Below, one piece after another: positions 1,290-55,632 of a DNA stretch of 64,000 bases (the stretch's first letter is position 1; each line of letters opens with the position of its first letter). Origin of the DNA: Methyloprofundus sp. Its GTDB lineage: Bacteria; Pseudomonadota; Gammaproteobacteria; Methylococcales; Methylomonadaceae. Under the pieces are notes generated by a model. That model did not search any database and was not told where the DNA came from. It worked only from the letters and a program-made list of their open reading frames with translations. Where the stretch lies: positions 1,833,669-1,897,668 of the forward strand of contig OY821640.1 in NCBI GenBank assembly GCA_963682125.1. Direction: 5' to 3'. Both the position numbers and the translations under genes were made by a program.

Positions 1290-1354
1290 AGTGCCTTCCC
1301 TCTATTTAATAACACCTTTAAATACGATCAGTATCTTGATTTCGTTTGGGTATA
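1290..1354 (+). mobile_element. IS630-type right-end remnant with ERIC-like terminus
   Basis: ATCTTGATTTCGTTTGGGTATA is identical to the IS630 terminus at 37778-37799. It is preceded by a short frame FNNTFKIRSVS* resembling the IS630 C-terminus. Confidence 0.6.
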
Positions 1355-21119: not shown

Positions 21120-21304
21120 ATAGAGCTTTAAGAATGATATTCATTTTTCAGCCTATAAAAGCTCTTTGTAATTAATTAGTTACGCTTAACTTACTGGCAT
21201 TGGGGATTACCCCTACGATGACAACTCACATCTTAGAATAATTAGACCTTATTACTTATGCCTAACATCAGTAATTAACTTAATCAAAAACCCCTCACCT
21301 AAGC

Positions 21305-21360
21305 AGAAGACCGCTGTTCCGTTTAGTTAACACCACATATCTTCATTAATTTTGGGTATA
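21305..21360. repeat. Partial ERIC-like MITE overlapping the zipA stop codon
   Basis: GAAGACCGCTGTTCC..TTTAGTTAA..ATCTTCATTAATTTTGGGTATA matches the right half of 55345-55482. Confidence 0.75.
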
Positions 21361-26460: not shown

Positions 26461-26574
26461 TATACTCAAGCTACTTGAAGATGCCAATTTAAAAAACTGC
26501 GAGCTTTAGTCGCAAAATACTTGATCTGTAATTACAGTGACTTCCTCGCTCGTCACCTCCTAGTTAAAATCACG
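26461..26574. repeat. Truncated ERIC-like MITE
   Basis: TATACTCAAGCTACTTGAAGATGC start and TAGTTAAAATCACGC block match 55345-55482; right terminus absent. Confidence 0.7.
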
Positions 26575-26640: not shown

Positions 26641-26716
26641 TGGAGCTGATGATGGGAATCGAACCCGCGACCTGCTGATTACAAATCAGCTGCTCTACCG
26701 ATTGAGCTACATCAGC
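26641..26716 (-). tRNA. tRNA-Thr(UGU)
   Basis: GCTGATGTAGCTCAATCGGTAGAGCAGCTGATT-TGT-AATCAGCAGGTCGCGGGTTCGATTCCCATCATCAGCTCCA: 76 nt, cloverleaf, TTCGA T-loop, encoded CCA. Confidence 0.97.
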
Positions 26717-36130: not shown

Positions 36131-37135
36131 CTAATCATTGCTTAAATTTTTTATTTGCTGACTTGCTGCAATAAAAGCCCCCAAAACACCGAGCAATGTA
36201 GATAGCATAATAAATAAAATCGTTTCATTTAAAGCCATAAAACGTAATTGATACTCACTATGATAGAGTGCCAGCAATTGCTCCACAGGAGACTCTAACA
36301 ACAATACAATACTAGTAACAATAAGCCACGCTAAAATACCTGCAAGACTTCCATACCAAAAACCTGTGTACAAAAATGGTCGATAAATATAAGCATTACT
36401 CGCACCCACTAGCTTTTCTATCATAATTTCATCGCGCCGTGTCTGTAGCTCAAGCCGAATACTATTGCCCGTTATCAAAATGACCGCAATAATTAACAAT
36501 ACAGTAACCGCACGAATAAAATTACGCGCTATTTGCATCATGGCTTGCAACCTTGAAACCCACTGCATATCCATTTGCGCAAATTCAACGGCAGAATGAG
36601 CTTCTAACATTTTAAGCCATGATGAAAAATCATTATTCATCGCTATTTCAGCCACAGGAAAAACCTGTATTACTCGTGGTAGTGGGTTGTGTGTTAAAGC
36701 ATTTAAAGCGCCACCAAAGCCACTGTACGCTTGAAACTCATCCAATGCCTGCTGCTTTGAAATGTAGTGAACTTTATCAATTTGGGCTTTATTTTTTAAT
36801 TGTCCCGCTAAAAGCATTGCCTCTTCATCTGTCACATGATCATGTAAGAATAACGAAATCTGTCGCCCCATTTGCACATCATCAAAAACTTGCTGACTAT
36901 TATTCAATATGACATAAAACCCGCCAGCTAATGACATGGCGATGGCAATAACAAGTATCGTCATTGCTGATGAAGCAGGCGTTTTCCATAATCGTTTGGC
37001 ACTACTAAATAAAGCAAAATAATGCGTCATCAAGATAGTAAATAAAATCCCCTTCCGCTCTCTTAATACTTTCGGGGGTTTACTCAATGCTTCACGATGA
37101 TGCCGCTTTATTTTATGTTTTTTAGAGGGTCTCAT
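36131..37135 (-). CDS. ftsX: Cell division permease FtsX
   Basis: Four TM segments, periplasmic domain NPLP, KLVGA...I.RPFLY.G. Confidence 0.9.
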   Translation of the reverse strand: MRPSKKHKIKRHHREALSKPPKVLRERKGILFTILMTHYFALFSSAKRLWKTPASSAMTILVIAIAMSLAGGFYVILNNSQQVFDDVQMGRQISLFLHDHVTDEEAMLLAGQLKNKAQIDKVHYISKQQALDEFQAYSGFGGALNALTHNPLPRVIQVFPVAEIAMNNDFSSWLKMLEAHSAVEFAQMDMQWVSRLQAMMQIARNFIRAVTVLLIIAVILITGNSIRLELQTRRDEIMIEKLVGASNAYIYRPFLYTGFWYGSLAGILAWLIVTSIVLLLESPVEQLLALYHSEYQLRFMALNETILFIMLSTLLGVLGAFIAASQQIKNLSND

Positions 37136-37796
37136 AGGCCTCTTTCAACATCCGCCCATGATTTAATTGCAATACTTTATGTTTTGTCTGTGCAACAATC
37201 CCAGCCTCATGAGTTGCGATCAATATACTCACACCAACCTGTTGAAATTGCTCAAATAAATTCATAATTTCAATGGATAGTTCAGGGGTTAAATTTCCCG
37301 TTGGTTCATCAGCCAAAATTAAAGCTGGTTTATTAACAACGGCTCTGGCGATTCCAACTCGTTGCTGCTCTCCACCTGATAAGGCTAATGGATATTTTTT
37401 TTCCTTTCCTAACAAGCCTACTTTATCAAGTGCCGCACGCACGAGCCTTGCAAGATCATAATGCCCAACCCCAGAAACCAATAAAGGCAAAGCAACATTG
37501 TCAAACACTGTTCGGTCAGCCAACAACTTATAATCTTGAAATATTAAACCCATTTTTCTACGCAAAGCAGGAATATCTCCTTCTCGTAAACGACATAAGT
37601 TCTGTCCATCAAAGAGCATCTGACCTCTTGAACAGCGCTCCATAAGAGCAACCAACCTTAATACTGTACTTTTTCCTGCACCTGAATGCCCTGTTAAAAA
37701 GGCAATTTCACATTTATTTAAATGAAAACTCACATCAATCAACGCATTATTCGCTGTATAACGTTTGAAGACATGATTATACCCAAACGAAATCAA
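37122..37796 (-). CDS. ftsE: Cell division ATP-binding protein FtsE (5' end supplied by IS630 terminus)
   Basis: GHSGAGKST, LSGGEQQRVGIARA, LADEPTGNL; TTG start at 37796 lies in the IS630 TIR; native ATG is stranded at 39141. Confidence 0.85.
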   Translation of the reverse strand: MISFGYNHVFKRYTANNALIDVSFHLNKCEIAFLTGHSGAGKSTVLRLVALMERCSRGQMLFDGQNLCRLREGDIPALRRKMGLIFQDYKLLADRTVFDNVALPLLVSGVGHYDLARLVRAALDKVGLLGKEKKYPLALSGGEQQRVGIARAVVNKPALILADEPTGNLTPELSIEIMNLFEQFQQVGVSILIATHEAGIVAQTKHKVLQLNHGRMLKEAYETL

Positions 37797-38846
37797 GATG
37801 CAGAGCTTAACACCTGAAAATTATCGTTAATTCTTTCGTTTAAAGAGTCGGCAATACTAGGTAATGTCCGATCAAAAAAATGATTTATTTGATGTCGAAA
37901 TTCCTTAGCCGTTGCAAAATATTTATTATTCCGTGCGTGTTCATTCATGACCTTCCAGAGTCGTTCTATCGGATTTAAATTAGGACTGTAAGGTGGTAAA
38001 TAATGGAGTTTAATATTTAATTCTTTTGCTTTTTCAACCACAACGCTCCATCGAGCACAATATTTATGCAGTGACTTGATGCGTATTGAGCCTTTATTTT
38101 TTCAAAAAAATCAATAATAGACTCACCATTGACGGTTTTATATTGATGGGGGACCGCTTCAGATAAAAAGCCCAATCGAATGGCTCCGATGATATTTAAT
38201 CGAGTTCGACTGCCTGTTGTTTCAATGACTTTATCAACGCCTGTTTTAATCCAGCCAGAGGTGACTTTTGTGGCTTGTGTTGGAGGGACTGCATCAATGA
38301 ACAAGAGTGGTTCATCACACGCCAGAGAAGCCTTTAGCGCTTCGTATTCACGTATAAATTCAGCTTGCTTCTCAGCGTTAAACTTATGAGGTACACCTTT
38401 AGGTTGCTTATAGCTAAACCCCTGTTGGTGAAGCCATTTATTCATCCCTGAAAGACTATATTGAATAGCATAGACGGACAGAACATAAGCAACAATTTGA
38501 TGGGTATGAACGTCAGTAATTTCAGATAAATGTTGAATCAATTTTTCTGTCTGGTCAGCCTTTAAAAGGCTTTGTGAGCCCCCATTTTCAGGGGCTAACT
38601 AAAGTCCATCAGATGACGCGAAATGGTAGAGTCATGTTTTCTTAAAGCTTGGGCAATTTGTGTGATTGACCAGCCTTCTGAGCTGAGTAATATGGCTTTA
38701 ATTCGATCGCACTCATGTACATCACGGACTTTATTATGCCGCAATTCTAATGCCTTTTTTTGTTCGGAGGTGAGTGTGATTTTCATATTTTGTATAGCTT
38801 GACTTGATTTTTCTCATTTATCAAGCATCTTCAATGATTTTGGGTA
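37780..38846 (-). mobile_element. IS630-family insertion sequence (frameshifted transposase)
   Basis: Fragments 38595-38786 (HTH), 38017-38541 (FIDAV, SRTRLNIIGA) and 37793-38041 (LPPYSPNLNPIERLW); TA duplicated at both ends; termini TATACCCAA..AAGATGC. Confidence 0.9.
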
Positions 38847-38852
38847 TAAAAC

Positions 38853-39134
38853 TAGGCGCGCCATTCCTACTTCATGAAACATTGGGATGTCCTATCGCCA
38901 ATCTTCATTCAGCACGGAGCGATTTATGGGAGCCCCAGTTCGTCCTGCGTCCAACTCAACTACGCAAAAAATACTGCTTCGTTAAGTCTACCTCAAATGA
39001 CTTGACGGCTGTCGGGATAACTACTTGCCTCCCGAGCGAACTGACCAGTTCACTTCGGATTGGCGAATTTCCCTGTCGCCTACTGCGGACTAAAAATCAT
39101 CACTTCGCAAGCTCCGTTTCCCTGATTTTCAGCG
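38853..39134 (+). mobile_element. 283-bp TIR-less element (family R; 282 bp here)
   Basis: Inserted within codon 3 of ftsE with no duplicated bases. Confidence 0.9.
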
Positions 39135-55220: not shown

Positions 55221-55344
55221 TTTTAAGCGGTATCATCACTAAAAATCAGGGATGATTTCAGCGATGGTCGAATGGGGGGAAAGTGCTATTATTCATTCCC
55301 CCTATGAAAACGTCATTCCTTCATGCTTTTAGAAGGAATCTATC

Positions 55345-55482
55345 TATACCCAAGCTACTTGAAGATGCAGGCTTAATGGAACCGCGATCTTTAGTCGCGG
55401 AATGCTTGATATGTGATTGCAGCGGCTGAAGACCGCTGTTCCATTTAGTTAAAATCACGCATCTTCATTTATTTTGGGTATA
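55345..55482. mobile_element. Complete ERIC-like MITE (138 bp incl. terminal TA)
   Basis: Ends TATACCCAAGCTACTTGAAGATGC / GCATCTTCATTTATTTTGGGTATA, the same architecture as the IS630 termini. Confidence 0.85.
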
Positions 55483-55632
55483 GACTCCCGATTAAAGACT
55501 TCGGGAGAGACGTTTTACAAGCATATAAAAAATACATTCAACGATTAATTATAAAACTCCACACTTAATGATGACATAGCCATAAAATTAAAATGTATAA
55601 TTTATCTTTTCACTAAATTTTAATCTCATATT

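Follow-up and report, generated by a model that had tools for sequence, protein, structure and literature searches.

The insertion sequence (IS) at positions 37778-38848 of the 64,000-nucleotide stretch of the Methyloprofundus sp. genome analysed here (contig OY821640.1, positions 1,833,669 to 1,897,668; this whole stretch is referred to as the window) raises two connected questions: whether it is the autonomous partner of the miniature transposable elements with inverted repeats (MITEs) lying in the same stretch, and what the resemblance of its ends to the enterobacterial repetitive intergenic consensus (ERIC) means. Both points had been brought up in a sequence-only reading of the window, and all IS and MITE end strings quoted there were found at the places given. 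Based on the comparisons described below, the window holds a dead copy of an IS630 element, the transposase of its intact sisters would in all likelihood mobilise a family of 138-bp MITEs, and the ends involved belong to a widely used class. The host genome, a single contig of 2,684,752 bp with 38% G+C, carries a pmoA/amoA-type gene (PF02461, 428 bits) and belongs to a methanotroph.

The IS630 copy in the window and its sisters

In total, 17 full-length copies of the IS were found in the genome, with a mean identity of 98.5%. An intact copy of the transposase gene was sought, and nine were found elsewhere in the genome: the 341-aa open reading frame (ORF) is undisturbed in nine of the 17 IS copies. 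An intact IS comprises 1103 bp counting both TAs and contains this single ORF, the stop codon of which lies inside the downstream inverted repeat. The intact transposase reached 215.5 bits with the NCBIfam model NF033545 (IS630) at a cut-off of 100, and Pfam matches were obtained for DDE_3 (119 bits), HTH_33, HTH_29 and HTH_23. Its catalytic motifs FIDAV, LDGAGYH and NLNPIERLW align with those of 10 homologues and show the DD34E arrangement, with 34 residues from the second D to the E. Terminal inverted repeats, one ORF and a length of ~1.0-1.4 kb, features by which the IS630 family (IS630/Tc1/mariner superfamily) is recognised, are all present in the 1103-bp element. A tblastn search of the genome revealed no second substantial IS630-type transposase, the sole other match with E<0.1 being a 94-aa remnant of 27% identity, and by this result another IS630-type transposase as driver of the MITEs is ruled out.

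The copy in the window shows the layout TA-TACCC...GGGTA-TA and comprises 1071 bp with both TAs (IS body of 1067 bp) compared to 1103 bp for the intact form. According to the sequence-only reading, a transposase gene is bounded here by ERIC-like ends. An IS630-family gene does lie between these ends on the minus strand, but it is broken into three ORFs of 63, 174 and 82 aa. Compared to the 1103-bp consensus, a 13-bp deletion (AAAAACAAACAAA) was located between 38601 and 38600, and a 19-bp deletion (CGGGCTATCATCGATCAAG) between 38046 and 38045, directly after LDGA. Since the reading frame changes at the 19-bp deletion, immediately behind the second catalytic Asp, the copy in the window is unable to make transposase. 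The candidate role of autonomous partner ascribed to it thus passes to the nine intact copies elsewhere in the genome, while the window copy itself, with its two deletions, is non-autonomous.

The lesions of the window copy recur in the genome. Both deletions, together with two identical base changes, are present in three copies, at C1:1764095, C1:1871446 (the window copy) and C1:2194945, which lie at unrelated loci with different flanks. Two copies each were found for two further defective lineages, of which the first is marked by a common pair of frameshifts and the second by a common nonsense change. The occurrence of identical lesions at unrelated loci can be explained most simply by a movement of dead copies by the enzyme from intact copies, and exactly this is required for the mobilisation of MITEs.

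Ends, target site and proposed mobilisation of the 138-bp MITEs

The complete MITE in the window folds as DNA with -30.7 kcal/mol (z -6.5) and belongs to a short, non-coding family, for which 38 full-length and 32 partial copies were determined at unrelated loci of the genome. One other copy is 100% identical to that in the window and 10 copies reach an identity of 98.5% or more with it, at a mean pairwise identity of 92% for the family, which includes subfamilies, among them older ones of 139 bp. The mean identity of 92% indicates that the family is older than the current IS burst, and the near-identical copies indicate recent movement as well. In addition, partial copies had been reported at 1331, 21305 and 26461 of the window. 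All three exist, but the first consists of a single IS-type end, with no IS interior attached and no partner end nearby, and the end belonging to the second really lies at 21337-21360.

A search of the window with the end pattern TATACCCAAANNNNNTNAAGATGC, allowing up to three mismatches, resulted in seven matches compared to 0.14 expected, a number reached in none of 100 shuffles. Over 24 nt, the right end of the MITE is identical to the inverted repeat upstream of the transposase (IRL) at 22 positions, while its left end agrees at 20 positions with IRL and at 19 with the downstream inverted repeat (IRR). As IRL and IRR themselves share 19 positions, the identity between MITE and IS ends (19-22/24) is no worse than that between the two ends of the IS. 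A variant of the right end found in several MITE copies, TATACCCAAAATCAATGAAGATGC, even reaches 23/24 with IRL (hand count). The differences between MITE and IS ends are confined to positions 10-17, where IRL and IRR differ as well. The similarity is maintained past base 24, to the IRL of the group (GC.TGATTTT) for the right end and to its IRR (GCAGG.TT.A) for the left. Judged from these alignments, a resemblance of ~30 nt on each side is as expected if the MITE were an internal-deletion derivative of an IS of the same group.

The borders of both elements comprise a TA, which was found on both sides of 17/17 IS copies and 38/38 full MITEs, and no further flanking duplication is common to both sides. 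For the IS copy at C1:396457, the 42-mer consisting of the left flank, one TA and the right flank occurs uninterrupted 92 times in the genome. It follows that the IS entered a TA and duplicated it, as elements of the IS630 family do. This copy lies within another repeat of ~95 copies, which are 99-100% identical over 154-162 bp; one of them is located at 1534-1687 of the window, and the repeat is presumably another insertion sequence. In the congener G017, the region orthologous to the locus of the MITE at C1:835719 was read by local alignment of the reconstructed empty site. The alignment is continuous over the junction, which reads TATA, and the region therefore represents an empty site. Furthermore, IS and MITE show a common mild target bias with T at -2 and A at +2, which was determined for 53% of the IS and 62% of the MITE sites compared to 31% in the background. 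As a source of a further empty site, the paralogues of the locus carrying the window MITE were considered and dismissed, four of them having 8 extra bp (ctatgcac) at the junction. The window MITE sits in a small two-hairpin repeat (cattccttcatgcttttagaaggaat ... gactcccgattaaagacttcgggagag; 55290-55344 and 55483-55520 of the window), for which at least four genomic paralogues and relatives in congeners were found.

By analogy to the IS630 family, the N-terminal helix-turn-helix domains of the transposase would bind the ~24-nt ends, and the enzyme would cut the element out and paste it into a TA, which would be duplicated in the process. Any DNA with two such ends could then be moved by an enzyme made elsewhere. 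Such a movement in trans would account for the 138-bp MITE family, for the spread of the defective IS copies and for the MITEs of congeners that carry the same ends. From the ends of the two elements we infer that the 341-aa transposase would bind and mobilise the MITE, for which the identical lesions of dead IS copies at three loci and the common target bias provide indirect support.

Several observations weigh against this assignment. The MITE copies are more diverged than the IS copies (mean identity of 92% compared to 98.5%), and part of the MITE spread may be older than the present IS burst. The left end of the MITE agrees at 21/24 positions with the downstream end of enterobacterial relatives, compared to 19/24 with the IS of its own genome; its occurrence in the MITEs of congeners as well suggests that the parent was an older IS variant. 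Moreover, a conserved His beside the first catalytic Asp, present in 10 relatives (D-A/S-V-H-P), is replaced by Pro in every copy of this genome (D-A-V-P-P-T-Q, e.g. L007 1516-2541 (-), residue ~172). The element with Pro nonetheless reached 17 copies. Finally, the deletions might have been spread in the absence of transposition by gene conversion among the IS copies, which would be a less economical explanation for the dead copies.

The divergence of the MITEs would also be compatible with fossils, amplified by an earlier, now lost IS variant of the same group and no longer moved by the present transposase. The older 139-bp subfamilies fit into this picture, and so does the left end, which differs from both IS ends at 4-5/24 positions and is common to the MITEs of the congeners G002 and G011. 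However, some of the spread was recent, as shown by the two identical MITEs and by the 10 copies with an identity of at least 98.5% to that in the window. The IS also tolerates 5/24 differences between its own ends, at the same variable positions 10-17, and the target bias of MITE and IS is the same. Altogether, a purely fossil origin is considered unlikely, and mobilisation by the transposase of the intact IS copies is preferred.

Relation to ERIC and distribution of the end class

ERIC has been described as a TA-flanked MITE with target duplication, with no partner transposase named, and the only link between a MITE and an IS630 partner cited there is that of RUP with IS630-Spn1 (Delihas 2007, PMC2229807). 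In Photorhabdus luminescens, MITEPlu5 was described as related to ERIC (MITEEc1 in ISfinder) and was tied by end similarity to the 'CCC-type' IS630 elements ISPlu3, ISPlu8 and ISPlu19, whose activity is the highest of all elements there (Zamora-Lagos et al. 2018, PMC6267812). The proposal that ERIC-type MITEs are linked to IS630 has therefore been in print since 2018, and what is new here is the host, the MITE family, the quantitative test of the ERIC ends and the survey of the end class. In our literature search, no paper connecting methanotrophic symbionts with IS630 was found. The Photorhabdus system resembles the one described here in the CCC beside the TA target and in a hairpin MITE of ~120-140 bp with the ends of the IS, TA duplication and high copy number. 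It differs in the host, which is a methanotroph of the mussel-symbiont group in our case, and in the number of copies, with 38 full MITEs compared to 552 for MITEPlu5. TA-TACCC was found at both ends of all IS copies in this genome, as in the CCC type, and a kinship with ISPlu3, ISPlu8 and ISPlu19 is suggested by the published description together with the enterobacterial relatives discussed below. RUP of Streptococcus pneumoniae is likewise a classic TA-duplicating MITE assigned to its IS630-family partner by the ends, but it belongs to another IS630 subgroup with other ends and to a Gram-positive host.

For a direct comparison, an ERIC consensus was derived from 10 copies of an E. coli chromosome. 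It starts with TATACTCTAAATAATTCGAGTTGC and has TATACTCGTCATACTTCAAGTTGC at the other end; the left end is TATACTCTAAATAATTCGAGTTGCAGGAAGG and the right end, read inward, TATACTCGTCATACTTCAAGTTGCATGTGC. Most of these copies are flanked by TA, in agreement with the sequence-only reading, while the ERIC start given there was close but not exact for E. coli, being two bases off the left end. The ERIC ends are identical to the ends determined here at 15-18 of 24 positions (16-18 for the MITE, 15-18 for the IS). To see whether the likeness extends past the first bases, a profile was built from 34 ends of related IS from other organisms, leaving out ERIC and the elements of this genome, and was scored on bases 8-27 only, with P values from 2 million random sequences. 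The ERIC right end showed 18.8 bits (P ~5e-7) and the ERIC left end 6.1 bits (P ~3e-4), while 16.4 bits (P ~2e-6) were determined for the IRR of this genome and 24.2 bits for its IRL, a score reached by 0 of 2 million random sequences. The local ends as a whole scored 16-24 bits, and the scores of the MITE ends were reached at most once in the 2 million. The similarity to ERIC is thus not limited to the first nine bases, as bases 8-27 of the ERIC ends lie well above chance.

These values also bear on the suggestion that the likeness of IS, MITE and ERIC ends is due to chance, or to convergence on a TA-rich hairpin in the absence of a common transposition machinery. Short AT-rich ends may recur by chance, and the 6.1 bits of the ERIC left end are low. 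Nevertheless, the surplus of end-pattern matches in the window, the rarity of the MITE-end scores among random sequences, the P value of the ERIC right end and the TA duplication common to all of the elements make such a coincidence hardly credible.

ERIC, also known as intergenic repeat unit (IRU) or RU-1 (MITEEc1; 127 bp), shares with the MITE, in diverged form, the TA-flanked TATAC(T/C)C ends and the inner block TT(C/G)(A/G)AG(T/A)TGC at bases 15-24 (..TTC(A/G)AGTTGC in ERIC), and both are non-coding long hairpins of ~130 bp. In contrast, the interiors are unrelated and the host ranges differ. A blastn search with the 138-bp MITE against 5,426 E. coli genomes resulted in no ERIC match for its interior and only a 30-nt match to an IS630 end, which rules out an ERIC-like interior. 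The ERIC core GTGAATCCCCAGGAGCTTACATAAGTAAGTGACTGGGGTGAGCG, the target of the ERIC1R/ERIC2 primers, is present in 5,424/5,426 of these genomes and missing from the MITE. Since the interior is unrelated and the ends are group-wide, the local MITE is not an ERIC but a parallel product of the same IS group.

The extent of this group became visible from the relatives of the transposase. The closest ones, with 75-76% aa identity, were found in methanotrophic gill symbionts of Bathymodiolus (B. puteoserpentis, B. platifrons), whose IS630 elements have nearly the same ends as here, e.g. TATACCCAAAATTATTGAAGATGC. Their assemblies contain one or two IS copies compared to 17 in this genome. Among the congeners, the IS occurs in G009 and G011 (75-76% aa) and as fragments in G002. 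While the 138-bp MITE was not found among 30 related genomes, a MITE of 151 bp was detected in G002 and G011, at the same site in both species, and one of 266 bp in G006. Both comprise the same TATACCCAA..AAG(A/G)TGCAGG ends with unrelated interiors, which indicates that MITEs arose from the IS group more than once in this genus.

The end class TATACCC-N7-(A/T)TT(G/C)AAGATGC, starting with TA-TACCC, was present in every relative examined. Its carriers include Colwellia, Psychromonas, Shewanella, Vibrio and metagenome-assembled genomes of Legionella-like bacteria and Chlamydiae, as well as Pectobacterium, Klebsiella, E. coli HH107 and plasmids of Salmonella and Enterobacter. On plasmids and chromosomes of Enterobacterales and Vibrio, the IS630 transposases are 53-61% identical over the full length and of the same size, and the ends read TATACCC..TT(G/C)AAGATGC (for example Salmonella pF18S038-1, Enterobacter pRHBSTW-00198_2, E. 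coli HH107, Pectobacterium polonicum and Klebsiella sp. WOUb02). They represent different species-level IS, and their hosts have ERIC, while the host described here has its own 138-bp MITE. A relative of the IS was found in 249 plasmid records, 145 of them from Salmonella; on an IncQ1 plasmid, IS of the same group adjoin erm(42), and in Enterobacter and E. coli they lie beside the mrk operon for type 3 fimbriae.

Against this background, it is very unlikely that the IS of this genome is specifically the autonomous partner of ERIC. The TA flanks of ERIC and the 15-18/24 identities of its ends would agree with such a direct pair, but this end class occurs in over 20 further IS elements, and the fit to ERIC is as good or better for the enterobacterial ones among them (~20/27 by hand count against the 10-copy consensus). 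Furthermore, the host is a methanotroph and no enterobacterium, and the interior of its MITE has no counterpart in the E. coli genomes. As judged by the profile and the survey, the likeness to ERIC is real but generic; it would reflect a shared ancestry of the end class and no special tie to this element.

Features of the window and possible meaning of the end class

The features are collected in Table 1.

Table 1. Positions of the IS, its transposase remnants and the MITE-related sequences in the window.
Feature	Position	Strand	Basis or remark
TA of the target-site duplication, left (outer TA in 'TATACCC')	37778..37779		TA borders in 17/17 IS copies
Defective IS630-family IS body	37780..38846	-	97% identity with the 1103-bp consensus from the 17 copies in the genome
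TA target-site duplication, right copy	38847..38848		same basis as left copy
IRL, end upstream of transposase, TATACCCAAAATCATTGAAGATGC	38825..38848	-	identical in 17/17 copies
IRR, end downstream of transposase, TATACCCAAACGAAATCAAGATGC	37778..37801	+	includes transposase stop codon
Transposase fragment 1 (63 aa, N-terminal helix-turn-helix), ended by 13-bp deletion	38595..38786	-	ORF list
Transposase fragment 2 (174 aa; second helix-turn-helix, first and second catalytic Asp), ended by 19-bp deletion	38017..38541	-	ORF list, homologue alignment
Transposase fragment 3 (82 aa; C-terminal, catalytic Glu of NLNPIERLW)	37793..38041	-	ORF list, homologue alignment
Complete TA-flanked 138-bp MITE, long hairpin, left end IRR-like, right end IRL-like	55345..55482	+	end match, genomic copies
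Left end of the MITE, TATACCCAAGCTACTTGAAGATGC	55345..55368	+	
Right end of the MITE, TATACCCAAAATAAATGAAGATGC	55459..55482	-	
Truncated MITE, right 58 bp, 88% identical	21303..21360	+	end at 21337-21360
Degenerate truncated MITE, left 78 bp, 79% identical	26461..26537	+	similarity to MITE
Solo IS end, IRR type (TATACCCAAACGAAATCAAGATAC)	1331..1354	-	matches IS end over 22 nt

The IS lies directly at the start of ftsE (37122-37796, minus strand), the TTG start codon of which sits within the IS end (37776-37800 of the window). The first six codons of ftsE (MISFGY) come from the IS end and are followed by the native NHVFKRY..., and the stop codon of the transposase remnant overlaps the ftsE start (TTGA). 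The native ftsE start had already been displaced by a 283-bp element before the arrival of the IS. This separate 283-bp repeat adjoins the IS at 38853-39134, occurs in more than 100 genomic copies of 96-99% identity and shows no similarity to IS or MITE. Several copies of it interrupt MITEs, e.g. at C1:1613397/1613402 and 1703362/1703366. The degenerate MITE at 26461-26537 is located ~100 bp from a tRNA gene (26644-26716, minus strand), which was the sole Rfam match, with none at the IS or the MITE.

No new mechanism is revealed by these data. What they provide is a clean and internally controlled IS630-MITE pair, with IS copies both intact and dead, several subfamilies of the MITE and a proven TA duplication. 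Its host belongs to the methanotrophs of the mussel-symbiont group, in which genome erosion involves bursts of mobile elements. According to the survey, the end class is distributed over many Gammaproteobacteria and over conjugative plasmids of enterics; it is that of a broad IS630 group with members on enterobacterial plasmids, and the termini of ERIC come within it. This supports and widens the Photorhabdus proposal of 2018 and names concrete transposases for the question of what moves ERIC.

Tentatively, the end class might be regarded as the portable address of one gammaproteobacterial IS630 group, which would repeatedly and independently have yielded hairpin MITEs, and ERIC could be moved, now or formerly, by the plasmid-borne members of this group. 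ERIC, MITEPlu5, the 138-bp family described here and the 151-bp and 266-bp families of the congeners would then each represent a separate birth of a MITE. We consider this a serious possibility, though one to be held with reserve. If it is true, this symbiont-type genome, in which nine transposase genes are intact and MITEs near-identical, would offer a live system for the cross-mobilisation of ERIC ends.

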